Source of the DNA: Candidatus Moraniibacteriota bacterium
Lineage (GTDB): Bacteria; Patescibacteriota; Minisyncoccia; Moranbacterales; UBA1568
Length of the DNA: 64,000 nt
Reading direction: 5' to 3'
Assembly: GCA_008012175.1 (NCBI GenBank)
Contig: SSEF01000011.1
Span: 6,413-70,412 of the forward strand
Position 1 is the first letter of the stretch. Every line of letters starts with the position of its first letter. Position numbers and translations under genes: made by a program. The notes beneath the pieces are model-generated. The model had not been told where the DNA came from and did not search any database. It saw only the letters and a program-made list of their open reading frames with translations. Below, one piece after another: positions 7,090 through 47,469 of the stretch.

Positions 7090-7389
<300 letters not shown>

Positions 7390-12267: not shown

Positions 12268-15200
12268 ATGGACTCCAGCAGCGGGAAGAACGACGGTGGC
12301 AGGGGCGACCCCGTGCCCAAAAAATTAAAGATATCCGATGGCGAGCTCGTTTCACGCATATCCAACTTGTTTTCGACGGGCAAGCTCACCAAATCAACCG
12401 TCGGCCTCGGCAATGTAGACAACACGAGCGACCTGAGCAAGGCCATCTCGAACCCCACTCAAGCGGCCCTCAACGCCAAAGTTAGCACGAGCACCACCGT
12501 GAACGGACACGCTCTGAATCAGTCCGCCGTTTCGCTTGTCAAATCGGATTTTGTCGGAACCGTCGTGTCCGTCACTTCGTCCATGACCGCGAGCGCGTGG
12601 GAAACGGTCGTGGCCGCTTCGGCCGCCTCGGGACCAATAGTCGTCACGCTGCCAAACATGTCGGCCAGCACGAGCGGTCAGACGCTCGCTGTCGTAAAAA
12701 CAGACGCCTCCGCCAACACCGTCTCGGTCCAGCCCGGAGCCGGCGCGACTTTGAACGGAGCGACGTCGAGCCTCGCTCTCAGCAATCAATGGGACGCGTG
12801 CATCATTGCCAACGACGGCTCTACGAAAGCGTACACCCTCGCCAAAGCCAGCAGTGGCGGTGGCGGCGGCGGTGGCATTTTCCCCGGTCCCGTCGGCATT
12901 GGAACGAACTCTCCGCAAGCGCCACTTGACGTGGAAACGAGCTCGACCTCGGCCTCGTCCTCGACGGTCTCGAGCTATGGCGTTTCACAGTGCAACGTGG
13001 ACGAATTTGGATATGCCTCATGTGTAAGCGCCGGCGGGCGCCAATCCATCTCGGTGAGCGCGCACACAATCTCCGTCGGCGGCACGAGCTACCCGATCGC
13101 TCAAACCAACCTGACGGGCCTCTCCACGAACTCGTCCATCTACTATGTCTATGCGGACGGCCTCTCGGGGAGCGCCAATGTGAACACGGTGCCGGCCGAT
13201 TTTAACATCGCCCCGTACCAGCTGCCGGGCGCCTATCTAAACTTCGAGTCCGGCCTGGACGACCCGTTCTGGAACGCGTGGAGCAACGGGCAGCAGGCGG
13301 CCATCACCTTGGACTCGTCGAAGAGCAAATTTGGAACGACGAGCTGCAAGATCGCGGGCGGCGACTCGCTCATCATGGCCCGCAAAAAAAAGTCCGTCGT
13401 CGAGAGCCGGCAGGCCATCTTCCTGCCAGCCTGCCCGTTTTGGCAAATTGACGCATGGTACTACATTACAAACGTGTCGCCAGCGACACAGTCTCCCATG
13501 ATGACCTATCGGAGTTCATCCACAAACACTTCCACCGCTAGTGGAAATGGATTTGGTCTCTACAAAACTGCAAATTTAATCGTCGCCTACATTTCGACAA
13601 ACAACTCGGATTGGAACGTGGCCAACTCGTACAATTGTGGCACGGTGCCCAACAACCAGTGGTTTCAAATGGGCGTGCGCTACGACGGCGTAAACTTCAC
13701 CGTCAAGGTCAACGGAACGCTCACCACCTTTGCGAGCTCGGCGGGCCTGGCTAATTTTACCGCCTCGAACAACACATACTGGACGCAATTCGGCCCGCTC
13801 ATCGATCAGAGCGCCAGCTACAGCTTCAACGTGGACGAGATCATCATGACGCCCTATCTTAGACCGTGGGCGCCTTCAAGCGCCTTCGTCTACACAGACA
13901 ATTGCCTGGTCGGCTCGCCTTTCGCGGCCTACCTGACCGGAACCTCGGGGCAAGTGGACGGCTACAATTTGAAGTGGTTCGGCAACCTCGTGGCCGGGCC
14001 CAACTATCCGGCCGGCAACGCCTCCTTCGCCCTCAACGACACGACTGGCCGGATCTGGTCGCCCGTGTGCCCCAATCTAAACGCCTGCAGCGAGTGGACC
14101 ATTGAGGCCTACATCTACGTGGCGTCCGTGTCCGCCTCGGCCTACCTTATAAACCTAACCGCCACCAACGACGAGGCCTCGCTCGTGCTCACCTTGAACA
14201 GTGCCACCCAAATGCAAATCAACATTGGCACCTCGACCAGCTTCAACATCTTTCAAGCAACCTTCCCAATCACAACCGCGACCTGGTTCCACTGTGCCAT
14301 CACTTATAGCAGAAAAGGAGGCTACGTCGTTTATCGAGACGGCGTGGTCGCTCAACAAACTCCCACAAACACGCCAATCGCTGCCACGGGCCAAATTATT
14401 TTGGGAAACTCGCCAGGCGGCGGTAACGCAGGTCATGCGTTCTCCGCTTACATGAATTGTTTTCGCATCACGCCCGCCCTCGTCTACACGAGCTCGTTCA
14501 CGCCGCCCACTGGCATGTTGGGCCTAAACGCCTTCCGAGACGTGATCGATCCGAGCACAGGAGCTTGCATCACCCAAGGCCTCAACGCCAGCACCGCCAA
14601 CAAACGCGTCTACCTGGCAAGCGCGCGCCTCGACATTCAGCGCGTCAGCCATTGGATTCCTCGGTTCACCGCCGCTCAGCCAATTGCCAAGCTGGGGCAA
14701 GCGAGCGTCTGGCGGGACGGAAGCATCACGTCCCCGGCCAAATCTTACCACCTGCCCGCGCCCTTCTCAAATTCCAAAGGCTTCATTTGCATCTTACGCG
14801 CCGACGGCAAACTCTTTGTAGGAGGCGACCCGGCCATCGGAAGCGACGGCGCCCTGGGCGTGCCCGTGTCAGCCGGCACTATCGACCAATTCTGGCCCGT
14901 GCCCTCGCAAACAATCCCCTTCAAAACTGTGATTTCGTGCTGGGCTTGCTACTATTGTGTCGACATCAACAACAATGTTTGGGCGTGCGGCTACAACGGC
15001 TACGGAGCCTTTGGCGACGGCACCACCACCAACCGGTCCACCCTCTCACCAATATACTTTTCGGCTGGAGGCGCGGCTGGTCCCAGTTTGTGGCTGCATG
15101 TAAGCTCGCCATCCAATCTAAACACTTCGAGCCTCTTCATCGTCGACGCCGGCAACATGTACTCGTGCGGATCGAACGGGAACGGCCAACTCGGCCTCGG

Positions 15201-16143
15201 CACAACTTCGGCGCAGTACACGCTCACGCAAGTGCCCAAGATAAGCGGCCAGAACTGGGCCGCCGCCTGGCAGTATGGCCTGCTCTCGTTCGCGATCACG
15301 GATGCCGCTTCCGGCAACAAACTGTACGCCTGCGGCACGAACGCCGGAAACAGTTTGGGCATAGCCGCAAGCGGCGGCACCGCCATAACCTCCTTCACTC
15401 AGTGCATAAATGCGGCCGGCCAGCCCATGTCCAACGTAAAGAAGGTTGTTAGTGTATGCAAAAATGGCGTAACAAATAGCGTCGTGTACGCCCTCCTCAA
15501 CGACGGCCGGCTCTACGTGACAGGCCACTCCCCGAGCAGTCCGTATTGGGCGGCCGGCACCGGGTCGCAGTACAACATACCTGGCTTCGGTTTTGTCGGC
15601 CCCATTTGCCAGAACGTCGCCGACGTCGCCGCTTCGGGGGGCGGGGACGATTTCGGCCTGCTCGTGCTCCGAACCGACGGCACACTCTGGACCACGGGCA
15701 GTCAAAGGGGAGGGTTCATAATCGACTCGGCCACTGGCACAATCTCCACTTCACTGCAGGCGGCGACCACCGGCGCGATCGGCGAACGGCTCTTGGCCGA
15801 GTCCATATTCGGCTGCACTTACGCAGGCACCGGCTGCAACGGCGCCATCACCTTCGACGGCCGCGCACTGCTCGGCGGCGCGCTCAACACCCAGACAAAC
15901 GCCCTCGGCGGCTTTCCCATAAACTCGCAAGTCTACACGCCCGTGGAGATTTCCCTCGACCAGGAGCGCATCACCTCAGGCCTCTTTTTCAGCACGTGGG
16001 ACGGAACCACCAATTTTGGCAACACCTTCCTTCAGACGTTCACGGGCAAAATCTACGTGGCCGGAGCTCAAGCGGCCGCGCTCACCGGCCGAGCCGCCAA
16101 TAAACAGACTTTTGCGCCACTTTTCTTTGAGCCGCTTTCGTAA
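12268..16143 (+). CDS. Large fibre/attachment-like protein of 1291 aa. Domain order is phage tail-fibre repeat, LamG/ConA-like region, then RCC1-like beta-propeller repeats.
   Basis: The N-terminal KSTVGLGNVDNTSDLSKAISNPTQAALNAK resembles the phage tail fibre repeat (Pfam Phage_fiber_2 type). The middle has VKVNGTLT and YRDGVVAQQ LamG-like strands and many N-x-S/T sites. The C-terminus has repeated GxNxxGQLGLGT-type RCC1 motifs (GYNGYGAFGDGTTTN, CGSNGNGQLGLGTTS, CGTNAGNSLGIAASGG). Confidence 0.65.
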   Translation: MDSSSGKNDGGRGDPVPKKLKISDGELVSRISNLFSTGKLTKSTVGLGNVDNTSDLSKAISNPTQAALNAKVSTSTTVNGHALNQSAVSLVKSDFVGTVVSVTSSMTASAWETVVAASAASGPIVVTLPNMSASTSGQTLAVVKTDASANTVSVQPGAGATLNGATSSLALSNQWDACIIANDGSTKAYTLAKASSGGGGGGGIFPGPVGIGTNSPQAPLDVETSSTSASSSTVSSYGVSQCNVDEFGYASCVSAGGRQSISVSAHTISVGGTSYPIAQTNLTGLSTNSSIYYVYADGLSGSANVNTVPADFNIAPYQLPGAYLNFESGLDDPFWNAWSNGQQAAITLDSSKSKFGTTSCKIAGGDSLIMARKKKSVVESRQAIFLPACPFWQIDAWYYITNVSPATQSPMMTYRSSSTNTSTASGNGFGLYKTANLIVAYISTNNSDWNVANSYNCGTVPNNQWFQMGVRYDGVNFTVKVNGTLTTFASSAGLANFTASNNTYWTQFGPLIDQSASYSFNVDEIIMTPYLRPWAPSSAFVYTDNCLVGSPFAAYLTGTSGQVDGYNLKWFGNLVAGPNYPAGNASFALNDTTGRIWSPVCPNLNACSEWTIEAYIYVASVSASAYLINLTATNDEASLVLTLNSATQMQINIGTSTSFNIFQATFPITTATWFHCAITYSRKGGYVVYRDGVVAQQTPTNTPIAATGQIILGNSPGGGNAGHAFSAYMNCFRITPALVYTSSFTPPTGMLGLNAFRDVIDPSTGACITQGLNASTANKRVYLASARLDIQRVSHWIPRFTAAQPIAKLGQASVWRDGSITSPAKSYHLPAPFSNSKGFICILRADGKLFVGGDPAIGSDGALGVPVSAGTIDQFWPVPSQTIPFKTVISCWACYYCVDINNNVWACGYNGYGAFGDGTTTNRSTLSPIYFSAGGAAGPSLWLHVSSPSNLNTSSLFIVDAGNMYSCGSNGNGQLGLGTTSAQYTLTQVPKISGQNWAAAWQYGLLSFAITDAASGNKLYACGTNAGNSLGIAASGGTAITSFTQCINAAGQPMSNVKKVVSVCKNGVTNSVVYALLNDGRLYVTGHSPSSPYWAAGTGSQYNIPGFGFVGPICQNVADVAASGGGDDFGLLVLRTDGTLWTTGSQRGGFIIDSATGTISTSLQAATTGAIGERLLAESIFGCTYAGTGCNGAITFDGRALLGGALNTQTNALGGFPINSQVYTPVEISLDQERITSGLFFSTWDGTTNFGNTFLQTFTGKIYVAGAQAAALTGRAANKQTFAPLFFEPLS

Positions 16144-16440
16144 ACACACACACCGAGGCGCACCTGGCCAAATATGGCGAAGGCCGCGGCTCGATTGTGC
16201 GCGTCCTCTTCCTTCCAGGCTGCGTCCTGTTGCCATTGTGCGAAATTCGCTCTTACATGAACGAGTACGTGGCGCCGCCCAATCGACTCTGCCGAAACGT
16301 GTTTGAAATCACGGCTCGGGAGGAGGGCGGGTCGCCAGCATACTTGGAAATTGTGGCTCGACCAAAAATTTTTTATCAATAAAACGTTTATTTCACACAC
16401 ACAAAAGTTTTTAGTTTTTTATTGTGTCTAACAAAATAGA

Positions 16441-16586
16441 TCTTGGAGCCAGCCTGGCTCTCGGTGCTCTAGCGGGCTCTTGGAGCCAGCCTGGCTCTCG
16501 GTGCTCTAGCGGGCTCTTGGAGCCAGCCTGGCTCTCGGTGCTCTAGCGGGCTCTTGGAGCCAGCCTGGCTCTCGGTGCTCTAGCGA
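16441..16586. repeat. 37-nt tandem repeat, about 4 copies (TCTTGGAGCCAGCCTGGCTCTCGGTGCTCTAGCGGGC).
   Basis: Direct reading. It lies in the convergent intergenic region between the 12268 gene and PCNA. Confidence 0.9.
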
Positions 16587-16598
16587 GTCCTTGACGTA

Positions 16599-17618
16599 CT
16601 AGCTAGCGATAAACTGCGCCAAAGAGCTCTTGGGGAGCTCGACCCGCGACGGCATGTAAAAATAGACCAGATCCTCATTGACGATGCCCATGTCATATCC
16701 TAGACCTGCGGCGGTGGAAGGAAGGTTTAGAAAGCTTTTTTTATAAACAAATAAAAAACCAACTCTCTTACGCAACAATGCGGCCTCGCCTTTGACATAC
16801 AAGTCGACAAAAACAGCCTTCTTGTTCTCGTTGGCTTGCCACGACGTCGCCTTGAGCAAACTGCTCGCTGCAAATTTACACGGTGCCACAGCTTTCTCGC
16901 CGCAAACACTCGTCGGTCTGAAGGCCACTTTGGCGGTCGCGTCGATATCGCACATGCTCAGCTCGAGCCAAGGCTCCGAGTAGGTTAGCTCCAGAGCCGA
17001 GTCCGATGACGAGTTCCACAGAGCCAATTTCTTGCACATGCCACAAAATCTATGCGCAGTCGGCAGGCTCAAACTCAGCATCGGCTCGCCGCAGCCAATC
17101 TCAAAACAAGAGGCCTCGGCGGACTCGGTGGCCCGGCGGGTCAGGCGCAGCTCAAACTGGGCCTCGGCGTGCGGAGTCTCGCTAGAAATATCCAAGGCCG
17201 CCGCCTCTTCTGTCGACAGGCAGATTCGAATGGCATTGTATTTTGCGACGCGGCGAAAAATAGTGTTTAACGACTTGACGGACACGCCGATGCAAAACTC
17301 CTTCGCGCACACATAGTCTTGCAATTCGGTCAGGACCGCCGTGGCCGCCAGGTGTTGGTTTGGACCGCACGCATAAATCTTCAATTGCCGCGCCGGCAGA
17401 CACTTGATCTCGAGCGTCTCGCAGACACCATGGAGCGACTCGACTAGTCGGCCCAACGCCTCGGCGTTCAATAACCTGGCCTCAAAGAAACTCGAACTTT
17501 TCCGCTTCTTGCTGGCCGTAACATTGGTCGCAGCGCCGTCCGGGGCCGGGCGCTTTCCCGGCGGCTGCTTGTACTCCAAAACTTCTTCTTCTTCTTGATC
17601 GGACAGAGACGCCATCAT
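16599..17618 (-). CDS. PCNA: PCNA sliding clamp homolog with an acidic/basic N-terminal extension. A candidate 66-nt in-frame intron lies at 16771..16706.
   Basis: FFEARLLNAEALGRLVESL matches the PCNA N-terminus (MFEARLVQGSILKKVLEAL). The C-terminus ...GYDMGIVNEDLVYFYMP parallels IADMGHLKYYLAPK once the GTAAGAG...CCGCAG segment is removed. A TATA lies about 55 nt upstream. Confidence 0.65.
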   Translation of the reverse strand: MMASLSDQEEEEVLEYKQPPGKRPAPDGAATNVTASKKRKSSSFFEARLLNAEALGRLVESLHGVCETLEIKCLPARQLKIYACGPNQHLAATAVLTELQDYVCAKEFCIGVSVKSLNTIFRRVAKYNAIRICLSTEEAAALDISSETPHAEAQFELRLTRRATESAEASCFEIGCGEPMLSLSLPTAHRFCGMCKKLALWNSSSDSALELTYSEPWLELSMCDIDATAKVAFRPTSVCGEKAVAPCKFAASSLLKATSWQANENKKAVFVDLYVKGEAALLRKRVGFLFVYKKSFLNLPSTAAGLGYDMGIVNEDLVYFYMPSRVELPKSSLAQFIAS

Positions 17619-17667
17619 CCTAGGGAGGAAAATAAGTTTATAATTTCGAAAAGAGGCCCCTTCTGTG

Positions 17668-17684
17668 CTTTTTATATACTACGT
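17668..17684. promoter_or_regulatory. Palindromic TATA (TTTTATATACTAC) shared by PCNA (-) and the basic-protein gene (+).
   Basis: It is about 55 nt from the PCNA ATG and about 12 nt from the plus-strand ATG. Confidence 0.45.
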
Positions 17685-17690
17685 ACACAA

Positions 17691-18038
17691 ATGCCACGTA
17701 AATCTAAAAAAGCAATTGCCACCGCGGCACGACTAGCTGTGGCGCGAGCGATGAAGATTAAGAGAGCGGCCATGTCGAAGACGGCGGCTAAAAAGAAAAA
17801 GAAGGGCACCTCGACCAAAAAGACGATACGGCGCCCGTGCGAGAGCAAGGAGGGCATGGCGCTCTACTTTAAAAAGGACGAGAGCAGGCCGCGACATCGC
17901 TGCTTGTCCACCATATGCAGCCGCTCCAAGAACCCCAACCTCCAGTTTGAGCGGCCAAAGAGCGGCATATGTCCTAGGATACGTGACGTGTTTACGGGCG
18001 AGACGATACGCAACGAACGCGCTCTATTCCGGAGCTAA
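17691..18038 (+). CDS. Small basic protein, histone H1-like or protamine-like, with a Cys cluster.
   Basis: MPRKSKKAIATAARLAVARAMKIKRAAMSKTAAKKKKKGTSTKK... The ATG is 12-20 nt after TTTTATATACTAC. Confidence 0.45.
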   Translation: MPRKSKKAIATAARLAVARAMKIKRAAMSKTAAKKKKKGTSTKKTIRRPCESKEGMALYFKKDESRPRHRCLSTICSRSKNPNLQFERPKSGICPRIRDVFTGETIRNERALFRS

Positions 18039-18089
18039 TAAAAAGAATAATAATACCGCCGGAGGGTGGGTCGGCCGGTAAAACAAGGA

Positions 18090-20030
18090 ATGATGGCCGA
18101 TGCTAACGATTCTTCGAGTGCTGATGATATTCGCGGCCGGGACGCCGGCGCCGGCAGGATACCGGCCAAAAAGCGGAGCATAGGAGCGGGACGCAAGCTG
18201 CGCGTTGACAACGCCACCCTCACTCGGCAACTGCGGCAAGTGCTACTGGCGGGGCACAACATAACATTTGACACGAGCCAGACCGATCGGACGACGATCA
18301 TCTCCGCCAACGCCATTTCCATTGCCAACGTGCAGCCCTTGGACACTCTGGTCGGAACGACCGGCGGCTCGCTCGTCAACGAGCCTTTGGACACGGTCCT
18401 CACCAGCTCATTGATCACGATGACTCGGACCAACGGAAACACGCAACTCGATTTGGAGATACCGGACACGCGCATCGTCAAGTACTATGACAGCACGCGC
18501 ACCTATACGAACACGAGCGCGAGTTTTATGAACGACGGAGTCAACTTTACCTACAACGGCCGCGAGTTTGTCGACACGAACCAGCTCGCCGCCGACAACT
18601 TCATCTTCAAGTACGCGCCCGACCCAAATTCCACCGCGCTCCAAGACGAGCTGAGCGTCTCGATCTCATCGAGCGTCTCCAATTTGCCCTGGCACCTCGA
18701 GAGCACCGCGAGCGCGCCCACCGCTGCGCTTTCGGCCACGCTGAACGGAGACTCTATCTATGCTACTTCATTTTCGGCCGCACAAGACTTGAAAATGTCC
18801 GCCACCAGGTACGCCACAGGGGGCCTGGCCTACCCCAACGACTACACCATCGTCTTGGCAGGCACGTTCCCGATCGACCAGACCGCGTCCAACACGTTCT
18901 TCAGCCTGTCGGGAACGACGACAATCTATCCGCTCTCGTTTGGCAACACGACCCTGCAAAGGGACGCTCTCGTGTATAATCTCGGCGAGGCTCATTACAT
19001 TCCCTATGTTCAAAACACGGGAATCTATGTGTTTCGAGTGTCCTTCACGACCGCCTTCACCTCCCTCCTAGACGTCTTCTTCAACGGCCACAAGGTCTAC
19101 ACCAACGCCATCTCGAACACGCTCACGGCCAAATCGCTCGGCCTCGGCGGCCTGCTCAGCCTCGGCTCCTCAACAAACACGGCCTCCTTTTCCATGTCCC
19201 TGCTCACCATGATCGGTTATGCCCAGGCGCTCTCCGATCAACAATGTATTTCGGTGAGCAAAGCGCTCAATTTCGCCAAGCAAGTCTTGCCCGCCAGCAT
19301 CCCCTATCCCAGCGCGCCCACGGCACTCATTCGCGCGCCCAGCATGAGCGCCACGTCCATAAGCGGCTCGGTTTCGCTATTTGGCACGGCACCGTTCGAC
19401 CTGCATCAGACCACGCCAGCCAACCAACCCAGCTATGTGACGCTCTACGGCGGGAGCATAGTTTTTCCCACGTACAACTTGAAATTTTCAGGCGCGCAAG
19501 CCAACATGCTCACCACGAGCGCGATCCCTGCTCGAGAGTCGCTCGTATCGGGCACCTTCGCCATAGCGTACTTGCCCAACGTGAGCGCGGCCAACGACAA
19601 CGAAATTCTGACGGTGGTGGTGCAGTCCGACAGCATCAAGCTCTTGACCCGCTACGTCGCCGGCGTGCACACCTTCTCGCTCGTGATGAACGGCACGCTA
19701 AAATGTAGCTCGGCCATTTCGCATGTGGCGGGCACAAACGACGAGCTCGTGCTCTTTTTGGTCAAGAATCAAACGTCCTTCGGCTTCGTCGCCGTGCGCG
19801 TCGACTCTCTAACAATAGTCGGCTCGTGCGCCTTCCCTTACGCCGCCGCAGGGAACGGCCTCAGCTCGCTCACGGTCGGCCGAACGAGCACGCCGACGAG
19901 CGTGTTTACGTACTTCCTGGGTGACATGTGGTTCTATCCGCGCTCGCTAGCCGGCTACGAATACAAGCTGCACACGGCGCAGTTCAAACAACTTTACAAC
20001 TTGCCACTCAGTGGCAGTATTTTTTCTTAA
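18090..20030 (+). CDS. Structural glycoprotein-like protein with two ConA/LamG-like regions.
   Basis: 647-aa protein from the ATG at 18090 in ORF 18066..20030. It is S/T/N-rich with many N-x-S/T sites and beta-strand-type segments (FFNGHKVYT, LVMNGTLK). Composition is similar to the 12268 gene product. Confidence 0.55.
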   Translation: MMADANDSSSADDIRGRDAGAGRIPAKKRSIGAGRKLRVDNATLTRQLRQVLLAGHNITFDTSQTDRTTIISANAISIANVQPLDTLVGTTGGSLVNEPLDTVLTSSLITMTRTNGNTQLDLEIPDTRIVKYYDSTRTYTNTSASFMNDGVNFTYNGREFVDTNQLAADNFIFKYAPDPNSTALQDELSVSISSSVSNLPWHLESTASAPTAALSATLNGDSIYATSFSAAQDLKMSATRYATGGLAYPNDYTIVLAGTFPIDQTASNTFFSLSGTTTIYPLSFGNTTLQRDALVYNLGEAHYIPYVQNTGIYVFRVSFTTAFTSLLDVFFNGHKVYTNAISNTLTAKSLGLGGLLSLGSSTNTASFSMSLLTMIGYAQALSDQQCISVSKALNFAKQVLPASIPYPSAPTALIRAPSMSATSISGSVSLFGTAPFDLHQTTPANQPSYVTLYGGSIVFPTYNLKFSGAQANMLTTSAIPARESLVSGTFAIAYLPNVSAANDNEILTVVVQSDSIKLLTRYVAGVHTFSLVMNGTLKCSSAISHVAGTNDELVLFLVKNQTSFGFVAVRVDSLTIVGSCAFPYAAAGNGLSSLTVGRTSTPTSVFTYFLGDMWFYPRSLAGYEYKLHTAQFKQLYNLPLSGSIFS

Positions 20031-20091
20031 ATGTATTGTTTTGAAATAAAAAAAGAGAATTGTTGCATATGAAAAATTTTTATTCTAAAAA

Positions 20092-21357
20092 TTATTCGGC
20101 AATAGGTAACGGCCCTCCCAGAGGCAGGAGGCTACGAATCCAAAGAAGAAAAGTCCACTGGCGGTCAACAAGCTCATTGTGCCAGTTGATCTTTATGGCC
20201 GCGCTCGTAGCCCACTCGTCGCTCGGCCGCGCTCGCAGTATATAGTGACCCGCCAATGGTCCGCCGTCAAAATGCACGAGGCCGTACATTTTTCCGTCCC
20301 AAAAGAGACGATACTCTTTCGGCTGGCTGAGGAGGAGGCGGCGGCGCGGCGGCTTCGGAACGAGCTTCGCTGAGGACGAGAGGCGAGCGAGGGCGAACGC
20401 TTTCCCGACCCCATGCCTGTGCCAGCTCTGCGGACACAAAGACTTCCAGCACACATGTCGCTCTTCCTCCTCCTCCTCCTCCTCTTCCTCCTCATCCTTG
20501 TAAGCTCTGAGCGCAGCCGAAGCCCAAGAGGCTCGCCAGTAGGCCGACGACTTGGCCGAATAATGGTCGAGATTGTCGACGAATTTCGGATCGAGCAACA
20601 AATTACAATAGTCCGTGTCGTCGAGACGGTAGAGCCAATCCAAGCGCTCCGGCATCCGACCGACCGACCGACCCCTGAATTTGTGTTTTCTTCTCCTCAT
20701 TCTCTGCGTTGCCAGCCCAAATGCCCTACTTGATTGCTCCTCCGCCATGCCGACCCGATTCGTTGGATCAACCAATGGTTGTTCGGCCGCACCCAATCTC
20801 GAAGCCGGATCCGGGGCCGCCTCGTAATCGACAAAGACTTGCTCGAGGAAAAAGACGATCGGCCGAGGCGGAGCAAAATAACTAAACTGTCTGTAGGCGG
20901 TTACGAGCAGGTCAGGGTCGTGACGTGGCCGACTGCCGTCGACCATCTTGACCCACCGGCTCCGAGCAATGCGACGCTGCGAAAGCACCAGATATCGCTC
21001 CGCCTGGTTCTGATAAACGAGCCGCCGCACCGGCTCAATAGGACCCAGTACCACGTATTCGGCCGGGTCGGCCAGCCCTAGACATGTGACACAGGATAAA
21101 GAGCACTCCGCCGCGCCGCCGCGGCGAGGCACAGTCATGGCGGACTGCGTCCAAAAACTGCACATGAGCTGTTGGAGCCGGGGTCCGTCGTGCGGGCCCG
21201 TCAAGTTATAAAAAATGGCGTTCCAGTGACCAGTGTCGATAGGCGCGCCGTACCAAAGACTAAACACGGTGCGAAAGAAGGCGTTGTAGAGGCGATGAGC
21301 CTCCTTCTTGTAGAGCTGAACTCGCTCGTGAAATTCGCTGGTGCTTGGCTGAAACAT
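20092..21357 (-). CDS. Hypothetical protein with a poly-Glu tract.
   Basis: 421-aa ORF. It contains the 49-nt segment RRIARSRWVKMVDGSRPR, shared in inverted orientation with nt 700-748. Confidence 0.45.
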   Translation of the reverse strand: MFQPSTSEFHERVQLYKKEAHRLYNAFFRTVFSLWYGAPIDTGHWNAIFYNLTGPHDGPRLQQLMCSFWTQSAMTVPRRGGAAECSLSCVTCLGLADPAEYVVLGPIEPVRRLVYQNQAERYLVLSQRRIARSRWVKMVDGSRPRHDPDLLVTAYRQFSYFAPPRPIVFFLEQVFVDYEAAPDPASRLGAAEQPLVDPTNRVGMAEEQSSRAFGLATQRMRRRKHKFRGRSVGRMPERLDWLYRLDDTDYCNLLLDPKFVDNLDHYSAKSSAYWRASWASAALRAYKDEEEEEEEEEEERHVCWKSLCPQSWHRHGVGKAFALARLSSSAKLVPKPPRRRLLLSQPKEYRLFWDGKMYGLVHFDGGPLAGHYILRARPSDEWATSAAIKINWHNELVDRQWTFLLWIRSLLPLGGPLPIAE

Positions 21358-21765
21358 GTGGGCTGTTTTAATAACACTATTCGATCTAAAAAAGAGTTTT
21401 TATAATCACCTCCTCTCTTATTTATCGATCACACAATCAATAGCGCGGAAATTTATAGGGGACCGTTGCTAACAAGCAATATATCCATGTATCGCCCCGC
21501 TCTCTTCGATGTATCGCCTGCGCTACGTTTGTCTGTGAACGGATACATTAACGAGAGCTCGAGGGCGCGAACATACATTGACGTTCGCGTTGCTCCCGGG
21601 GAACACTATTTATGCGCGAGCGCGATCATACATCGACGTTTGTGTTGCGTCTGGAGGAACACTATATTTATGCGTGTGAGAGCAACATTTTCTCTCAAAT
21701 TTCTATATAGTGTTTTTATTTCACTTTTTTTCTTTCACAAAAACAACACACAATTCCGAAAAAGA

Positions 21766-22540
21766 ATGGGACGAGTTCCGACGGCCAAGCAAGAGCTGAG
21801 AAAACTGCAAGAGCAATTCCTAGCCAGAGCCAACGCGCCGCCTTTGCAAAAGAAGGCCCCTCGCAGCAGCAGCAGCAACAGCAATGTTGCCAAGATTTCG
21901 CTCCGCGCGATCGTTCAACTAGCAAATAGTGTCGCGCCGGGAACATGGAAGCGGCTCGCTCATCCGAACGTGGTCGCCGGTCTTCTGATGGCTCCCTTCA
22001 TGGAGTCGCCGGACCGAATAGTCGAGCCGCCGCCGGCGATCGGAAAGTACAATCCAATTTCGCCCTCCCTAGTGCAATCCATTTTGCCCGCCGAACACCC
22101 GAATTTTGAGGGCCTGTGCCAGTATCTCGGAAACGCGCTGGGCATATGGGCAGACTATTTTCCTTGGTCCAACGTGTTTGCCCCGATGATTCTTTCGCTA
22201 TCCTTTGAGCATAGGCACTGGGCTTGTAGAGGTAAATTGATGTTTTTCTTGCTATCAACGCAGCACACATCACACTTTCTCTTTTTCTCTAGTTTTAATC
22301 GAATCGACGCGCCGCAGTCCCACGAAGCCACCAGCGACCGAGCCCCAAACAGAGTCCTTAACAGAAACACTCGCAGAGCCCCAAACAGAGTCCCTCGCAG
22401 CTTCGGGGGAGCCCGCCGGGGAGAACCAGTACGAATTTTTACAAGAGCTCGTTGGCGACGACCCTACGAACCCGACCGACGTCGAGGAGTTTACGCAGAG
22501 CCTCATACGATCGGCACAAAACTTTGGCCGCGACGTTTAA
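21766..22540 (+). CDS. Hypothetical protein, 2 exons (21766..22231, 22293..22540), with a 61-nt intron and an acidic C-terminus.
   Basis: ATG at 21766. The GTAAAT donor is at 22232 and the TCTCTAG acceptor is at 22292. Exon 2 shifts frame to ...EPAGENQYEFLQELVGDDPTNPTDVEEFTQSLIRSAQNFGRDV. The unspliced read-through is Arg-rich junk. Upstream there are two roughly 45-nt direct repeats at 21545-21650 and a TATA. Confidence 0.45.
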
Positions 22541-22629
22541 CATATTTTTATTTTTATAAGAGAGATTTTTATTAATTTTCAATAAAATATTTGCCAACAA
22601 CACGTTTTTCTCTTTTTTTACTATATAAA

Positions 22630-23766
22630 ATGTCCGCCGCGGCGTCTCTAGTCGCTAGCACGCTAGACTCGTCTATACTTCAGACGAACCTAAATGGCTC
22701 GCTGATTGTAAACTTGAGCACAATAGTGCAACAGATTCCCAATGTTGTAAAAGTCGTTGTGAGCGACAGCATGAGCTCTATAGTCTCGTTTCGAGCGCTC
22801 AATAAAGAGTTTACCAACTTTTACTTGCCTCAGCTCAATCTCAAGAAATTTTATGACTTGGGCAAATTTAACGCCAACTACTTTCAGGCCTTCGGCACGT
22901 CCTTCCCTCTGACGTGCACGAGCAAGCTCTTGTTCGGCCTCGACATATCGATCGTAAACAACCTAAATTTCGCCGGCCAGCAGTTCCTGAGCGTCGGCGA
23001 ACTAGCCGCCTTCCGCTTCATGACGTGCCTCTGCTTCGGCCTCGTCTTCAACCTGTCCCTCGGCGTGGACTGCGCGTGCTATCCCAAGACGCTCAACGAC
23101 TTGTCGGCTCTCTCGGCCGGGATCGGCCTCAATTGCGTCTCCCTGACGTGTCGCAACCAACTCAAACTCAACCCGCTCTTGTTCAGCGACCTCTTGCACA
23201 CCGACTGCGAGAACGTGAATTTCAACGCGGCTTTCGTCTCACTAGACGTTTTCGCCGGCCAAAATCTCAACATAAATTTGGATATCGTACAAACCGACGA
23301 CTCCATTGACATGACCACCGCCCTCACAAATTCAGTGAACGCGCTCACGGCCTCGGTGAACGTGCTGCAGGACCAGCTCAACGGATTCTCCAAGCTGTAC
23401 GCGTCCGACCAGCGCGCCTTCCGCGCCGCCCTGGAGGCCGCACAAGTCTACATAGGCTCTATTGTACCGTGGCCTGTAACTGCGCGCAAATTGCCCAAAA
23501 ACTATCTCGCTTGCGACGGTGCCGTTTACAGTGCCGCCGACTTCCCCCGCCTCTTCGAGATCATTGGCACGACCTACACGTCGGACCAGCAGCCGGCCGG
23601 CAAGTTTCAAGTGCCGGATCTGCGAGGGGCCACGCTATATGGCTCCACGCAACCTACTTCAATAGTGGCGGACAGCCCGAGCTTTACAAAGCTCAATACG
23701 GCTCAGCAAGCGGCCACGGCCACTCTAACTGCCGTCTCCACCTTGTACTTGATAAGGGCCTCGTAA
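22630..23766 (+). CDS. Fibre-like protein with a C-terminal phage tail-collar domain.
   Basis: ATG at 22630, with TACTATATAAA immediately upstream. C-terminal LACDGAVYSAADFPRLFEIIGTTYTSDQQPAGKFQVPDLRGATLYGS matches the Collar domain consensus (LxCDGxxxxxxxYxxLFxxIGTxYG...FxLPDLRG). Confidence 0.65.
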   Translation: MSAAASLVASTLDSSILQTNLNGSLIVNLSTIVQQIPNVVKVVVSDSMSSIVSFRALNKEFTNFYLPQLNLKKFYDLGKFNANYFQAFGTSFPLTCTSKLLFGLDISIVNNLNFAGQQFLSVGELAAFRFMTCLCFGLVFNLSLGVDCACYPKTLNDLSALSAGIGLNCVSLTCRNQLKLNPLLFSDLLHTDCENVNFNAAFVSLDVFAGQNLNINLDIVQTDDSIDMTTALTNSVNALTASVNVLQDQLNGFSKLYASDQRAFRAALEAAQVYIGSIVPWPVTARKLPKNYLACDGAVYSAADFPRLFEIIGTTYTSDQQPAGKFQVPDLRGATLYGSTQPTSIVADSPSFTKLNTAQQAATATLTAVSTLYLIRAS

Positions 23767-23856
23767 ACACATGAAATATAAAAAAGTTTACAACAGCAAC
23801 AACTTTATTTTAAAAAATTATTTCGAGGTTGGCGACGACGACGAGAGGCCGGAGCC

Positions 23857-24432
23857 TTATTCCGAGGCTGGAGCGTCGTACTCGTCTTCGCTATTCAGAA
23901 TCCAGAACTCGTCCTCCCAAGAGCGCTCCTGCTCTCCATCTTCCAAAGAGGGCTGTTGCGGTCGGGGCTCTTCGTCCTCCGAAGAAGAAGAAGAAGAAGA
24001 AGAAAACTGTTGGTGTAGCCGCAGCAGCAGCAGCTGCTCTTCCTCCTCGCATTTAAACTCCTCGGAGGCCGGCTGAGGAGCCTGAAGAGGAGCGGCCGGG
24101 GGCTCGATCGAGGAGAGCATGGCTATGGTGGCCGACAACCGACTATTTTCCCACTTGCAAGCGAGACCATTGTGCGTGATTATGGTCATGTCCTCGCTGG
24201 CGTTATGGAGGCACTGGTACAGCTCGAGCTTCGCGGTCAAATCACGAATGTGCTGCTCCAGCGCGTCAATGTATTCCTGCCGCCGCTGCCGACACTTTCT
24301 AGCCGCGATCCGGTTGCGCTCGCGCCGCCTGTCTTGCGCCTCCGGGTTTGGCGTCGCAGGAGGTTTCGGTTGCTCCGGCTTCCTCGCTGCCGGCGCCCCT
24401 TCCGACAATACAGAAGTTTTCTTTTTAGTCAT
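23857..24432 (-). CDS. bZIP transcription factor.
   Basis: RRERNRIAARKCRQRRQEYIDALEQHIRDLTAKLELYQ is a canonical basic region N-x7-R plus a leucine zipper. There is an acidic Ser-rich C-terminus. Confidence 0.7.
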   Translation of the reverse strand: MTKKKTSVLSEGAPAARKPEQPKPPATPNPEAQDRRRERNRIAARKCRQRRQEYIDALEQHIRDLTAKLELYQCLHNASEDMTIITHNGLACKWENSRLSATIAMLSSIEPPAAPLQAPQPASEEFKCEEEEQLLLLRLHQQFSSSSSSSSEDEEPRPQQPSLEDGEQERSWEDEFWILNSEDEYDAPASE

Positions 24433-24592
24433 TGTGTGTGTGTGTGTGTGTGCATTCGCGTTTGCGTGGGAACATAGGTTTTATACTTTATTCTATGACG
24501 TACTCCATTCTCCATGGCAACAGCTCGTTGTGTTTCGTTAAGTGCACTCCTTCTGTTGCGTAGCGAGGAGCTTCGTTAATGTAATGCGGGTG

Positions 24593-24612
24593 CACTATAA
24601 AGATATAAAGGG
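24593..24612 (+). promoter_or_regulatory. TATA box (CACTATAAAGATATAAAG) upstream of the kinase gene.
   Basis: It is about 30-45 nt upstream of the ATG at 24638. Confidence 0.45.
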
Positions 24613-24637
24613 AACGAGCGAGCAACAACGATTTTAA

Positions 24638-25874
24638 ATGAAACCAAAGAAAATGAGCAACACTAATATTCTGCAACAACAGCAGCAACAGAAACGAAGC
24701 AGTTTGCCACGCGGAGCAAAGACTCTAGCGAACGAGCTGTTTAAAAGTCTAGCCCAGCAAATGCATCCGCGGTGGCGAAGGACCACCGAGAGGCCCGGCA
24801 CCAGCAAGCCCCCTTCGGTCAAGTCTGTAGGGGCGGTGGACGGCAGTTGTGGCAGCTGCGTCCCAGCCGACCAGCCGCCGCAGCCCTTCTCGGACGACAT
24901 TTACTTCACAGGCCCCATTTACTCGGGGCACTTTTCGCAAGTATGGCAGGGCACAGCCAATAGAGCGAACCCCACCAAGATTGTGGTCAAGTTTAACCGA
25001 AGCGTTAAAGATTTTGAGTACGAGTACGCCCTGCTCAACTATATGCGCCGCTTCACTAGGACGCCGTCGCCGCATCTACTCTATTTGAGCTTTTTGTGCC
25101 CCGTCGCAAACAATGGGATGCCGCCCGGTCTCGGGTTTGACCGAGCCATTTGCGACCTCAGTCAGGTGGTCCGCTTCTCGGTCTCTCTGGACCGCATCGC
25201 CCGCATGGCTACCGAAATTTTTGAGGGCCTGGCCGCGCTACACGACGAGTACGACATTGTTCACACCGACATCAAACTGCAAAATATTTTTGTCTTTTCG
25301 CACGCCATCAAATTGGGTGATTTTGGCTGCGCGCTTCTCAGACGGCCATCTGCCATCCTCCCGCAATGCCCCGACATTGGCCGCCTCGTGGGCAACCCGG
25401 AAGTCACGAGCGTCCCTTTCCGAGCCCCCGAAATTTCCGCAAGTAAGATTTTGTGTGTGTGTGTGTGTCTCTAACACTAATGTCGAGCACGCTAACTTGT
25501 CTCTCTTAGAAAGCCCCGATTTGAACGAGAAGCTCGATGTCTGGAGTGCAGGCGCCGTTTGTTTTGCTCTATTGACTCATGGCCAGTTTCTGATCGATTT
25601 GGCCGGGGCCGAGACCAAGGCGGAGCAGCGGCGCACTCGCTTCGAAAAACTGCTTCGTTTGTTTAACGCCAAGGACAAGGAGGAATCCTTTGAAGGGCGC
25701 TTGGCCCGGCTGGCGGACAAACAGTTTAGCCGCGAGCAGTTGGCGCTTTTTGACCCGCTGTGGCGGGCCGTTTTCGACTTTGACAACAAGAGCCGGGCGA
25801 GCGCTGCTGAGACGGCCCGGCTCCTCAGAAACTTTATTTTGCCTCGCATCGACGAGCCGTTAATTTTTGAATAG
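24638..25874 (+). CDS. Ser/Thr protein kinase, 2 exons (24638..25442, 25510..25874), with a 67-nt intron.
   Basis: Gly-loop GPIYSGHFSQVWQG, IVVKF (the VAIK Lys), HTDIKLQNIF (catalytic loop), KLGDFG (DFG motif) and APEI are present. DVWSAGAV (subdomain IX) follows the GTAAGA...CTCTCTTAG intron, which contains (GT)9. A TATA lies about 35 nt upstream. Confidence 0.75.
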
Positions 25875-25929
25875 TTTTTTAATAAAAAGTTTTTAACAGT
25901 ACTCTCTTTCTCTCTATCTCTCTTTTATT

Positions 25930-26607
25930 ATGCAACGAGACTTGTCCAAGTTGCCGAGCGCGAGCGCTATTCTTAGCCCGCTCAGCATGCCGCAGCTCCA
26001 AAACATTGTGGCCGATATTAGCACGGACCTGGCCGTCACAGAGCAAATTGTGGCGAGCCTTGAGGCCCGCGTAGACGAAAAGCTAGCTTCGCTACAGCGC
26101 GCCCTCGTGCCTGTCGGCTCGATATTCTGTTTTTCCAGCGGCCAAGTGCCGGCCAATTTTCATTTGTGCGACGGCTCGGCCTTCTCTAAAGCCGATTTCC
26201 CCGAGCTATTCGCCGCCGTCGGCAGCACGTACACGACGACCAACTCTCAACTCTATTTTAATATTCCCGATTTACGTGGCATGTTTGTGCGCGGCCACGA
26301 CTACGACCGGGGCGTGGACTCGCAAAAGAAGCGGCCGCTCGGGTCCGTCCAGGCCAGCCAGACGAGCATGCCTTCTTCGGGCCCGTTTCAAGTCAGCCCG
26401 GCGGGCAACCATCAACACACTACGTTCTTTTGGTACGCGCCACTCTCCGGAGCCGGCAACTCAAACTTTGTGGCCGTGTCGAGTTTGGGCGGATCGGTCA
26501 ATGTACCGACCACCATGAACGGAGCGCACTCCCATCAAATTTCAGGCGGAGACGCGGAAACGTGCCCAATTAACGTATCGCTGAATTACATCATCAAGAT
26601 TGTTTAG
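25930..26607 (+). CDS. Phage tail-collar domain protein.
   Basis: PVGSIFCFSSGQVPANFHLCDGSAFSKADFPELFAAVGSTYTTTNSQLYFNIPDLRGMFVRG is the Collar consensus. AHSHQISGG lies downstream. Confidence 0.7.
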   Translation: MQRDLSKLPSASAILSPLSMPQLQNIVADISTDLAVTEQIVASLEARVDEKLASLQRALVPVGSIFCFSSGQVPANFHLCDGSAFSKADFPELFAAVGSTYTTTNSQLYFNIPDLRGMFVRGHDYDRGVDSQKKRPLGSVQASQTSMPSSGPFQVSPAGNHQHTTFFWYAPLSGAGNSNFVAVSSLGGSVNVPTTMNGAHSHQISGGDAETCPINVSLNYIIKIV

Positions 26608-27502: not shown

Positions 27503-28483
27503 CTAGTTGAGCAGGCACGCGTGTACGAGGTACAAGTTCTCGGCGCCCTCCTTACTCGTCGGCGCCGTCTCCCGGACCTCGTGCAAGCATCTCAGACTAC
27601 TGCTCGTTTTTATCAACTTGTACTTCCACGTCATCGTCTCCACAGTAAAATAAATCTCCGACGTGATCTCGTCTAGCCGGCCAAAATAAGCATGCAAATC
27701 CACGTTAACTGCAATCTCTACGATACGCGCGCGCCGGCCACTCTTCTCTATATAGTCTCGCAGCCGCTCGTCCTCACCATACAAGTCGCTCACCTGGTTT
27801 TCGACCGTGAGAGGATACTGTTCTTCCAGAATGACGGCCAGCTTCTCGTCTTTGCACCACTCTTTAGAGTAGACGTCAGGCGGTGATTTGTACGCCACAA
27901 AAAACGCCTTCACCTCGCTCAGCTCGGACGCCTTATAATCGTCTTGGGTGGAGTTCCCCGATGCGACCGACTCCTCGTCATCGGAGTAGTATGTGTCGTC
28001 GTCTTCTATTTTCGCAAAATGATAACTCGGAGCCGCCTCGTGGACTTCTGACTCTTCCGAAGGAACCGGAGCATCAGGCGGGGCCTCGTGGACTACTGAC
28101 TCTGGTGCTTCCGAAGGAATTGGAGCATCAGGCGGAGCATCGGAGCAGACTTTCTTTTGCGGGCCAGCGATCTCGCTCATAGATTTGCGTTTCCGCGCTT
28201 GGTAAAAACTCGTGTAATTATCCAAGGAATTGCATTTGTCGATGAGAAAATCGTTCGAGTATTCTTTCGAATTGAAATCCAAAGAGTATTTATAACTAAA
28301 GCTCGTATTGCCGCGAATCCTGGCCCACCTCTCCTGGCTGAGAGGTTCGCCGCGCATGTATTTTGCCCGTGTCTCGTTACATTCAGCAATAACCTCATCT
28401 ACGGACTTCAAAAACTGCTCCCGCGCTTCGCGAATTTGAGTGAGATACGATTCATAGAATTCGCAAATTTCCTTTGAGCTCAT
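27503..28483 (-). CDS. Hypothetical protein with a PDAP(I/V)PSE repeat.
   Basis: 326-aa ORF of complex composition. An AT-rich repeat spacer with AATAAA lies downstream at 27190-27480. Confidence 0.45.
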   Translation of the reverse strand: MSSKEICEFYESYLTQIREAREQFLKSVDEVIAECNETRAKYMRGEPLSQERWARIRGNTSFSYKYSLDFNSKEYSNDFLIDKCNSLDNYTSFYQARKRKSMSEIAGPQKKVCSDAPPDAPIPSEAPESVVHEAPPDAPVPSEESEVHEAAPSYHFAKIEDDDTYYSDDEESVASGNSTQDDYKASELSEVKAFFVAYKSPPDVYSKEWCKDEKLAVILEEQYPLTVENQVSDLYGEDERLRDYIEKSGRRARIVEIAVNVDLHAYFGRLDEITSEIYFTVETMTWKYKLIKTSSSLRCLHEVRETAPTSKEGAENLYLVHACLLN

Positions 28484-28758: not shown

Positions 28759-28797
<39 letters not shown>

Positions 28798-28827: not shown

Positions 28828-30489
28828 ATGGTCCTCTCCTCTCTCCGAGACATTTCGCTTCGAAGCGCCTTGTGCACCATCAAAAATCTCAAAAGGCTCC
28901 GGCCGCTAACCAACATGAACCTGGGTGAGTCGAGCGCCCTGCGCGCGCACATGTTCCTCCATTGCCCCAACTTGTACCGAGCCATGTTTAAGAGTAATTT
29001 CGCCGGATTGGCCTACGACAAAAAGGACGCGGACGCATGGGAGGGCTACATCCAAACCGAACGGGATATGCCGCCGCCGGAGAGCGCGCTCTACGACGAC
29101 GAAGAATTTTGTCAAATGCTCGTGCGTAAATGGCTCTTTTCCTACATTCCGGCGGCGAAGAGGACGATGCGCCTCGTACACTATTGCTTCAAAACCAATC
29201 GGGTTTCGGCGGAGACTGTGAACGAGTACCCGCACGTGGCCTGCTTGTACCCCAATTCTATGTTTCTCATGAAGCTACAGCACATAACCCCCGAGATCAT
29301 TGAAACCTATTTTGCGACCGGCCGGGCCGACCTGGCGAAGGACCTCGACCCGACACAATACATTTGCTTTCGGCAAGTGCTGAACCAGAGACCCGCACTG
29401 GCCGCGGCCGCGCCACCAGCTACCTTACGCTCTTTGCAGTGCCTATATCTGAGGAGGGCAGTGCCGGGGCCAATAGTAGAAATTGCGCGCCAGTTCGAAA
29501 TAGTCGAACTTTATCCCGCCGACTACTTCACCGACCAAGTCTGTCGAGACCTGCTGGCCAAGACCGCGTTTAGGCGGCTCGCGAAGCGGCTACGTATGCT
29601 CGAAAGCATGTGTCAAGCGGCTTTGATGCAAGACGTCGAAAATTACAGGTACATTGCGAAAACCGGGCACTGGCCATTGGAGTGGATCATGGCCATTTTG
29701 TCGCGGGCCTCCGACCCGGGCGAGGCCTGGCGATTCATGTATCCGAAGCACCTGCCCCGGAGCAGTATGAGCCAACAAGAGAAGGAGGAGCTCTGTTGGC
29801 TGCTCATACGCGACGCGCCCAACGCGAGCCCGGGCCACTTGGAGGACGAGGATTTTGATGCGCTCACGCTCGAGCAGAAACGCTACTTTTTGATGTACGC
29901 ATCTCTGAAGGTCGCAAACGTGGCCCTCGAATGGCTCAAGATGTTTGGTGGGATCGGCGACGTGCTTACGCAGGAAATTTGCGATCACTTGATTTTGACG
30001 GTGAAACCCTCCAATGGCGTGGAACAACTGGTGCAAAACAATATTTTTATCCTGCTTCCGAACCAGTTCAAAACGGAGCGGCTATGCACGCACTACATAA
30101 AACATGAGCTCAACTGCTGGCCGCGGGTGCCCAAGACGAGCGAGAATCTAAAATTGTGGTTTGAAACGCACAAACCGGCCGCCAATTGCGACGCGTACTT
30201 GGAAGAGTTTCCTATGGATTGCGCCGAGACGCGAAAGATTATAGCTCACTTCCCCAAGGTGGTTGCGCGCCTCTCCAATCTCGACCTCTCTGTGGCCACC
30301 GAGTTTTGCTTGGAGAACCGAGAATGTCTCGAGTACATTAGAGAGCCCGCCCTCTCCAACGTTTTAACAAAATGCGCCAAGAACGAGAGCGGGGAGTGGC
30401 GAGAAAACTGGCAAGAGAATTTGCGCTTTCTAAAGGAGCACTGCCACAAACCGTTCCAGATGCTCCTCTTTTACTCTTTTCTACATTAA
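28828..30489 (+). CDS. Hypothetical protein, paralog A of a convergent pair.
   Basis: 553 aa. It shares HCPNLYRAMF/DDEEFCQMLV and a long central block (RLRMLESMCQAALMQD...LIRDAPNASP...KRYFLMYASLK) with the 30600..32327 product. Confidence 0.55.
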   Translation: MVLSSLRDISLRSALCTIKNLKRLRPLTNMNLGESSALRAHMFLHCPNLYRAMFKSNFAGLAYDKKDADAWEGYIQTERDMPPPESALYDDEEFCQMLVRKWLFSYIPAAKRTMRLVHYCFKTNRVSAETVNEYPHVACLYPNSMFLMKLQHITPEIIETYFATGRADLAKDLDPTQYICFRQVLNQRPALAAAAPPATLRSLQCLYLRRAVPGPIVEIARQFEIVELYPADYFTDQVCRDLLAKTAFRRLAKRLRMLESMCQAALMQDVENYRYIAKTGHWPLEWIMAILSRASDPGEAWRFMYPKHLPRSSMSQQEKEELCWLLIRDAPNASPGHLEDEDFDALTLEQKRYFLMYASLKVANVALEWLKMFGGIGDVLTQEICDHLILTVKPSNGVEQLVQNNIFILLPNQFKTERLCTHYIKHELNCWPRVPKTSENLKLWFETHKPAANCDAYLEEFPMDCAETRKIIAHFPKVVARLSNLDLSVATEFCLENRECLEYIREPALSNVLTKCAKNESGEWRENWQENLRFLKEHCHKPFQMLLFYSFLH

Positions 30490-32531: not shown

Positions 32532-32572
<41 letters not shown>

Positions 32573-35575: not shown

Positions 35576-35632
35576 GCACTAGCAAAGCACTAGCAAAGCA
35601 CTAGCAAAGCACTAGCAAAGCACTAGCAAAGC
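35576..35632. repeat. (GCACTAGCAAA)x6 tandem repeat immediately upstream of the 35636 ATG.
   Basis: Direct reading. Confidence 0.9.
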
Positions 35633-35635
35633 ATC

Positions 35636-47406: not shown

Positions 47407-47469
47407 GTTAGAGAGAAAGAGAGAGCGAGAGAGACAGAGAGAGAGAGAGAGTAAAGCAACAAGAGTTTT

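Follow-up and report, generated by a model that had tools for sequence, protein, structure and literature searches.

The 64-kb stretch of DNA analyzed here, referred to as the window, is part of a 95,747-bp contig deposited in GenBank as a metagenome-assembled genome (MAG) under the label 'MAG: ... [Candidatus Moraniibacteriota bacterium]', and the reads behind the contig came from the metagenome of a potable-water-reuse plant (PMC6212505; samples SRR6439730 and SRR6439735). Positions 12268-26607 of the window hold three genes whose products are homologous to phage tail fibers: a long modular protein of 1291 amino acids (aa) and two Collar-domain proteins of 378 and 225 aa. An earlier reading made without database searches (the sequence-only reading) had described four genes with phage-derived modules, clustered within 14 kb of a eukaryotic virus-like element. 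The three open reading frames (ORFs) that it placed at 12268-16143, 22630-23766 and 25930-26607 were confirmed on the forward strand, and homology to phage tail fibers held for three of its four genes but failed for the remaining one, which encodes a 646-aa protein. Nor is the interval a cluster of four genes: at least 11 ORFs lie within it, among them genes for a PCNA-like protein, a bZIP protein and a kinase, the last of them split (Table 1).

The 1291-aa protein is composed of a variable basic N-terminus, a conserved leader, a fiber repeat, a stalk, a glycine run, a conserved unassigned domain, two LamG regions and an RCC1-like β-propeller. Few charged residues are present along its whole length. 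The repeat, GLGNVDNTSD...ALNAK, was matched within residues 34-167 by PHROG tail fiber and minor tail families (35419, 13892, 8780, 24919 and others) with E values of 1e-4 to 2.5e-8 for families annotated as tail and down to 5e-9 overall. An ortholog with four repeat copies, P0005, matched these tail families with E values of 1e-12 to 3e-42, in three to four stretches for all families but one, and its lowest PHROG E value was 2e-53. Judged by these profile matches, the element is a real phage tail-fiber repeat. The family name proposed for it by the sequence-only reading, Phage_fiber_2 (PF03406), did not stand, as this model gave no match to residues 1-151 at E ≤ 1 or to the whole protein at E ≤ 0.1, and no Pfam model at all matched the repeat, not even in the N-termini of orthologs with four to five copies at E ≤ 10. 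The two other families named in that reading, Collar and RCC1, both gave significant matches. Laminin_G_3 (PF13385) matched residues 602-734 with 60.3 bits (E = 3e-16, cut-off 27.6 bits), whereas residues ~394-504, when scanned alone, reached 20.2 bits (E = 7e-4) and stayed below the same cut-off, although the whole-protein scan had counted a second Laminin_G_3 stretch; one of the predicted LamG-like regions is therefore firm and the other subthreshold. The predicted propeller was supported, with RCC1 (PF00415) at 30.4 bits (cut-off 21.7) and RCC1_2 (PF13540) at 31.6 bits (cut-off 22), and with RPGR, HERC1/2, UVR8 and RCC2 structures returned from the PDB at E values down to 5e-12. PF25390, a model of the whole propeller, scored 76 bits (E = 4e-21), below its cut-off of 150, and the phage family phrog_7220 matched the propeller with an E value of 8e-20. 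A loose Gly-rich repeat pattern has seven matches between residues 810 and 1144, spaced ~45-75 residues apart, and all but one of these fall within the propeller.

A separate observation concerns the leader. Among the long ORFs of the window, the pattern [KR]KL[KR][IV] together with a similar hydrophobic pattern occurs only in the fiber leader, the leader of the 646-aa protein and the PolB polymerase (positions 12319, 18192 and 52063). A capsid anchor or a nuclear signal was considered; in PolB, however, the pattern is a conserved internal element, and hhalign found no relation, so the sharing is probably due to chance.

Four full-length orthologs (P0002-P0005) are colinear with the 1291-aa protein at 42-56% identity. 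The leader and repeat are the most conserved part of the whole protein (60-75% identity), and the LamG and RCC1 parts show 40-57%. The stalk (residues 81-195) retains 50-59% identity to P0002 and P0003 and only 12-19% to P0004 and P0005, in which unrelated fiber modules take its place. N-terminal modules have thus been swapped within the family, and the repeat itself is present in one to four copies among the orthologs. A conserved N-terminus followed by variable distal parts is the usual pattern for fibers that are anchored by the N-terminus. An exhaustive profile search recovered the entire LamG-RCC1 core as a single continuous match in ~12 clusters (50% identity), with N-terminal extensions ranging from ~60 to 2330 residues, and both LamG and RCC1 were again detectable in the cluster members scanned. 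Various phage-fiber motifs (for example GLxNVDNTSD, NGYAxLDxxGK and LxDVxIxxPxxGQxLxY) were present in seven of the eight N-termini read, a set that excludes the largest member (3411 aa). Another protein, P0053, combines a match to the N-terminal repeat region of the query with RCC1 and a Peptidase_S74 fiber chaperone domain. The core of conserved domain, two LamG regions and RCC1 was not found outside these ~12 related clusters among the proteins scanned or returned, and no named or characterized protein with the full domain combination was among those returned by the searches. No ortholog of the fiber protein was present in IMG/VR, in the GTDB species genomes or among the JGI metagenome contigs; the last of these gave RCC1-repeat matches only.

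Both canonical collar domains reported by the sequence-only reading were recovered. PF07484 (cut-off 24 bits) matched residues 276-335 of the 378-aa protein (nucleotides 23455-23634; E = 7.6e-15, 55.1 bits) and residues 63-120 of the 225-aa protein (nucleotides 26116-26289; E = 1.7e-15, 57.1 bits), and GenBank already names both of them 'tail fiber protein'. Residues 48-224 of the 225-aa protein matched the tail-fiber families phrog_523 (E = 2e-25) and phrog_1858 (E = 1e-23). The PDB search with this protein returned the T4 gp12 structures 1ocy and 1pdi (E = 1e-7), and 1204 phage genome records matched it at up to 34% identity, 67 of them covering at least 80% of the protein. Two HxH motifs, NHQH at residues 160-163 and AHSH at residues 199-202 (nucleotides 26410-26418 and 26527-26535), are both kept in a 58%-identical ortholog on the related contig L003. 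Both gp12 and gp37 use HxH-type histidines for metal-ion binding. By these comparisons, the 225-aa protein is assigned as a complete T4 gp12-like fiber tip. The 378-aa protein begins with ~250 N/L-rich residues that match no family, continues into the Collar domain and, in the alignment, stops ~40 residues past the collar, before the HxH segment; PHROG tail fiber and collar families match this protein as well. By eye, helical segments that look coiled-coil-like are seen in the N-terminal part of the 225-aa protein and, as a short stretch, before the collar of the 378-aa protein.

The fiber and Collar genes are also neighbors elsewhere. On L003, a 44-kb contig (GCA_029980445.1), the fiber ortholog is followed by one gene and then by the ortholog of the 225-aa Collar gene, 0.9 kb apart. 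On L004, a 28-kb contig, the ortholog of the 378-aa Collar gene (80% identity) lies 1.7 kb upstream of the fiber ortholog and adjoins the ortholog of the unassigned gene at 21487-22575. The gene order on these two contigs differs from that in the window, and two further contigs end at the fiber gene, leaving their downstream side uninformative. No fiber or Collar gene was seen in the contexts of the 646-aa family, where PCNA-like and small basic genes are present. Fiber and Collar genes are therefore linked in three related genomes, a linkage in which the 646-aa gene has no part. Within the window itself, the three fiber-type genes fall within 14.3 kb of 64 kb, an arrangement with P ~0.13 for three random points and not significant alone; their proximity carries weight only because the linkage recurs in other genomes. 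The contigs with fiber or Collar orthologs also carry F-box, RING and cathepsin genes.

The fourth gene of the sequence-only reading exists on the forward strand, but its product measured from the ATG at 18090 has 646 rather than 647 residues, and its description as a glycoprotein-like paralog of the 1291-aa protein found no support in sequence or profile comparisons. The best BLASTP match between the two proteins had an E value of 0.49, and hhalign comparison of 5- and 8-sequence alignments gave a probability of ~1%. The 646-aa protein is Ser/Thr/Asn-rich, carries KKR and RKLR in its basic N-terminal part, matches no Pfam or PHROG family and has seven orthologs at 52-66% identity. AlphaFold2 modeling from eight sequences gave a mean predicted local distance difference test (pLDDT) score of 38, with residues ~500-600 reaching 55-84. 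When the whole low-confidence model was submitted to Foldseek, the top match was a phage tailspike and the matches were mainly LamG, ConA-like, galectin and neurotoxin-Hc lectin folds (E ~1e-4), a weak hint from the model of a lectin-like fold in the C-terminal part. We conclude that this is a conserved gene in its own right and belongs to no paralog pair. An upstream exon was also considered for it and rejected, as the ORF at 17691-18038 ends in TAA and encodes a separate conserved small basic protein. This 115-aa protein, very rich in Lys and Arg and with its own stop just upstream of the 646-aa gene, has 50%-identical counterparts in the equivalent position on contigs L007 and L008 and may be a DNA-binding or core protein.

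The placement of these genes in a eukaryotic virus-like element was upheld by the rest of the window, which encodes TBP, bZIP, ankyrin, a Ser/Thr kinase, the PCNA-like protein, a PolB polymerase domain and a superfamily 1 helicase, and in which two genes are interrupted by GT-AG introns (GenBank locus tags E6Q06_018xx-019xx, proteins TXH077xx). The kinase gene is split over two reading frames by a 67-nucleotide intron of spliceosomal type, GTAAG...(TG)n...CTAAC...TTAG, the removal of which yields a single 389-aa ORF and restores the spacing from APE to DVWSxG (subdomains VIII-IX). The PolB intron of 92 nucleotides, GT...GCTAAC...AG, is rich in (TC)n and (TG)n, and the spliced junction ...KYIIK/GFFKRS gives a gap-free alignment with P0068, a homolog in which the sequence runs on uninterrupted (...KFIIKGLFKRS). 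A possible second PolB intron begins at 53760 (GTAAGC...(TC)n...TTTAAG after ...AAYKR), and the called ORF of the homolog seems to enter the same element. Because TBP, bZIP, PCNA-like, ankyrin and kinase genes occur together with spliceosomal introns, the contig is a misbinned eukaryotic large DNA virus and not a bacterial MAG. The introns in the kinase and PolB genes further indicate that the virus requires the host spliceosome and therefore has a nuclear phase.

In terms of lineage, the virus looks like a nucleocytovirus. Mirusviricota may be the other possible placement, and it was retained because mirusviruses are likewise intron-rich and TBP-encoding (PMC12768974). PolB, divergent and ~700 aa long, showed the polymerase domain in the profile search and no detectable exonuclease domain. 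None of its 10 database relatives carries a virus or lineage name, the single named one being the mislabeled window record itself, and the search of IMG/VR viral contigs gave one match, at 23% identity. PDB searches with two unassigned proteins returned no useful match. A 405-aa P-loop protein (40677-41894, forward strand) matched FtsK weakly (E = 0.03); its GPTNAGKS, YFDD and NRH...SLQ motifs were read by eye as the Walker A/B and RH...Q of an A32-like packaging ATPase.

We favor, at somewhat better than even confidence, the interpretation that the products of the three genes are surface adhesins made up of phage tail-fiber parts and acting as attachment fibers. This interpretation is based on the conserved N-terminus and variable distal parts of the long protein, the swapping of its cassettes, the variation in repeat number, the scarcity of charged residues and the precedent of LamG proteins in the particles of another giant virus, described below. 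The 1291-aa protein would be a long modular fiber in which the leader and repeats form a virion-proximal stalk, and the two ConA-like/LamG domains and the RCC1-like propeller form the distal ligand-binding end. The 225-aa protein would probably be a short trimeric fiber with bound metal, and the 378-aa protein, in which a different N-terminal body is joined to the collar, would be a short collar-type fiber. Acting together, the three proteins would most likely bind carbohydrate-bearing structures of the host surface and so attach the particle. The host-recognition role that the sequence-only reading suggested for the fiber is plausible.

Several points weigh against this interpretation. Virion location, trimerization, glycan binding and the host-recognition role are all inferred from sequence, and RCC1-like domains have intracellular roles as well. 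The fiber-Collar linkage is seen in three related genomes only (the window, L003 and L004). Because replication and regulatory genes break up the interval, it does not form a dedicated structural module. Within the 64-kb window no capsid gene was detected, which bears on the particle type. As for the geometry of the fiber, the structure prediction that had been proposed for the 1291-aa protein was run with AlphaFold2 on residues 196-1291 (5-sequence alignment), and with a mean pLDDT of 38 it confirmed no fold and the model was not used.

A variant of the same explanation is that the proteins are exposed adhesins that bind bacterial or environmental glycans and not a host receptor, the virus being taken up as prey-like material or spread on other organisms. 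The modules derive from phage proteins that recognize bacterial surfaces, lectin-type LamG domains are present, and the source samples are bacteria-rich engineered waters. A role of this kind has moreover been proposed for mimivirus fibrils, and Rodrigues et al. 2015 (cited in PMC7507832) suggested that fibrils aid the attachment of giant viruses, both to hosts and to other organisms. However, an identity of 30-34% to phage proteins says nothing about specificity, and this variant is inseparable from the favored interpretation by sequence; we regard it as unlikely. With similarly low confidence, we suggest a broader picture in which an undescribed intron-bearing, TBP-encoding virus lineage with a nuclear phase, filed under a candidate-phyla-radiation label, would have these genes as its host-recognition apparatus and would diversify its host range in the manner of phages, exchanging cassettes of the N-terminus and stalk while the LamG-RCC1 binding head stays fixed, with bacterial-type glycans perhaps as the target and uptake as prey.

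An intracellular function of the 1291-aa protein is rather improbable. In that case the propeller would mimic a Ran exchange factor or another RCC1-family regulator, and KKLK in the leader would serve as a nuclear localization signal. The best solved-structure matches are indeed to the eukaryotic RCC1 family (RPGR, HERC1/2, UVR8 and RCC2), the spliceosomal introns make the virus nucleus-dependent, and K-K-x-K occurs in the fiber leader, as KKR and RKLR do in the basic N-terminus of the 646-aa protein. However, the PDB is biased toward eukaryotic RCC1 proteins, and phage RCC1-like families match equally well, including phrog_7220 and, in P0005, phrog_20500 with the annotation 'tail protein'. 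The basic motif does not by itself identify a nuclear signal, since KKLKIS is also a conserved internal element of PolB. In addition, a propeller fused to fiber repeats and LamG regions in a protein with few charged residues fits surface proteins and not nuclear regulators.

That the phage-like genes are foreign to the virus, whether as an assembly chimera that joined viral to phage or bacterial DNA or as decaying, functionless horizontal transfers, is very improbable and largely refuted: although the record was deposited as a bacterial MAG with Collar proteins named 'tail fiber protein', and the named proteins most closely related to the Collar modules come from phages (30-34% identity), eukaryote-type genes including the intron-split kinase lie on both flanks, GC content is continuous at 0.52-0.60 across the region, each ORF is complete and colinear with its orthologs, and intact orthologs of all three genes (40-80% identity) occur on independent contigs from other samples with the linkage kept. 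The fiber-type genes are native to the virus, because they are flanked by eukaryote-type and intron-containing genes and because their orthologs lie on contigs with F-box, RING and cathepsin genes.

Table 1 Features of the fiber-gene interval and of the remainder of the window
Feature	Position in window	Strand	Remarks
1291-aa modular fiber-like protein, E6Q06_01835	12268..16143	+	ORF and translation; exact database match P0001
Leader KKLKISDGELVSRISNLF..LTK (residues 17-45) and one repeat GLGNVDNTSDLSKAIS..ALNAK (residues 46-80)	12316..12507	+	
Stalk, residues 81-195	12508..12852	+	
First ConA-like/LamG region, residues ~394-504	13447..13779	+	Below Pfam cut-off
Second LamG domain, residues 602-734	14071..14469	+	Solid Laminin_G_3 match
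RCC1-like β-propeller, residues ~839-1291	14782..16140	+	
Weak PCNA-like gene	16599-17618	-	E = 6e-4, below cut-off
Basic protein of 115 aa, conserved	17691-18038	+	
646-aa protein, E6Q06_01845 (GenBank version 536 aa)	18090..20030	+	ATG at 18090
Gene without assigned family	20092-21357	-	
Gene without assigned family	21487-22575		
378-aa Collar protein, TXH07696.1	22630..23766	+	First ATG
bZIP gene	23857-24432	-	
Ser/Thr kinase gene, split over two reading frames	24638-25874		Intron 25443-25509
225-aa Collar protein, TXH07700.1	25930..26607	+	
PolB gene	51682-54047		Intron 53053-53144
(TC)n/(AG)n microsatellites	7099-7145, 28762-28796, 32536-32570, 47410-47451, 48432-48457, 53788-53859, 63004-63048		

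Other features of the window were noted alongside these genes. Between the 3' ends of the fiber gene and the PCNA-like gene, at 16441-16585, a 37-bp unit, TCTTGGAGCCAGCCTGGCTCTCGGTGCTCTAGCGGGC, is repeated perfectly in tandem (3.9 copies, 100% matches). Elements of the type TATAAA(A/G) recur 30-80 nucleotides upstream of many starts, as judged by eye without statistics, with examples at 7849, 16599-17618(-), 24638, 27503-28483(-), 33601-35184(-) and 48465-49064(-); they fit TBP-dependent transcription. Both Collar genes and a few others appear, again by eye, to have long AT-rich TTTTTA...AATAAAA stretches upstream instead. The (TC)n/(AG)n microsatellites consist of 13-35 units and lie mostly just upstream of starts or within introns, and an 11-bp unit, AAAGCACTAGC, is repeated in 5.5 perfect copies at 35573-35633, directly upstream of an 825-aa ORF. 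Finally, the ORFs at 28828-30489 (+) and 30600-32306 (-) form a divergent paralog pair (24% identity over ~560 aa, E = 1e-33) that has a relative on L003 and matches no family or PDB entry.

Much of what these proteins are made of is already known, namely Collar proteins, phage RCC1-like propellers and giant-virus LamG proteins. The closest comparison for the Collar proteins is the T4 gp12/collar fiber tip (PF07484; phrog_523 and phrog_1858), to which the 225-aa protein aligns over ~175 residues with its two HxH motifs. In contrast to gp12, the 225-aa protein has no long N-terminal shaft, its identity to phage proteins is 30-34%, and its gene resides in an intron-bearing eukaryotic virus without tail genes; the 378-aa protein differs further in having the collar only and no distal tip. 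Phage RCC1-like proteins (phrog_7220, 4219, 16766 and 20500, the last annotated 'tail protein') match the window propeller with E values of 8e-20 to 1.5e-8, but the window family is distinguished by its core of two LamG regions, and the roles of these PHROG families are annotations only. Particles of Aureococcus anophagefferens virus (AaV) package four LamG/ConA-like proteins, which are thought to be bacterial in origin, are presumed to bind polysaccharides and have no other recognizable domain (PMC7507832). These share with the 1291-aa protein, by description only, the presence of LamG/ConA-like domains in a giant virus, whereas in the 1291-aa protein such domains are placed between phage fiber repeats and an RCC1-like propeller. 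The surface fibrils of mimivirus offer a looser parallel, as surface or putative surface proteins used by a giant virus for attachment.

The literature found on Collar, RCC1 or LamG fibers in giant viruses consisted only of virophage papers and the AaV proteome paper. Collar domains may also occur in phycodnavirus genomes, the sequence-only reading naming chloroviruses and phaeoviruses; the literature searches found no paper on giant-virus Collar proteins, and the protein searches gave no named giant-virus relative. The claim of a novel architecture in the sequence-only reading is right in that the combination has no named relative among the proteins returned but was overstated in view of the RCC1 PHROG families, P0053, the LamG proteins of AaV virions (PMC7507832) and the GenBank name 'tail fiber protein'. 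The novelty lies in the specific set of modules conserved together, namely phage fiber repeats, an unassigned domain, two LamG regions and an RCC1-like propeller, and in their presence in an unclassified eukaryotic virus with introns. The proteins are thus of a familiar kind with domains newly combined, and do not amount to a new kind of system.

The finding of a viral contig under a Candidatus Moraniibacteriota label matters for database hygiene and for genome mining of the candidate phyla radiation. Attachment proteins of giant viruses are known for very few viruses. If the proteins described here are located on the particle, they would provide a rare example of an inferred attachment system in a large virus of eukaryotes that is uncultured, and they would indicate that receptor-binding modules of phages, such as collar tips and fiber repeats, are reused and shuffled in eukaryotic viruses.

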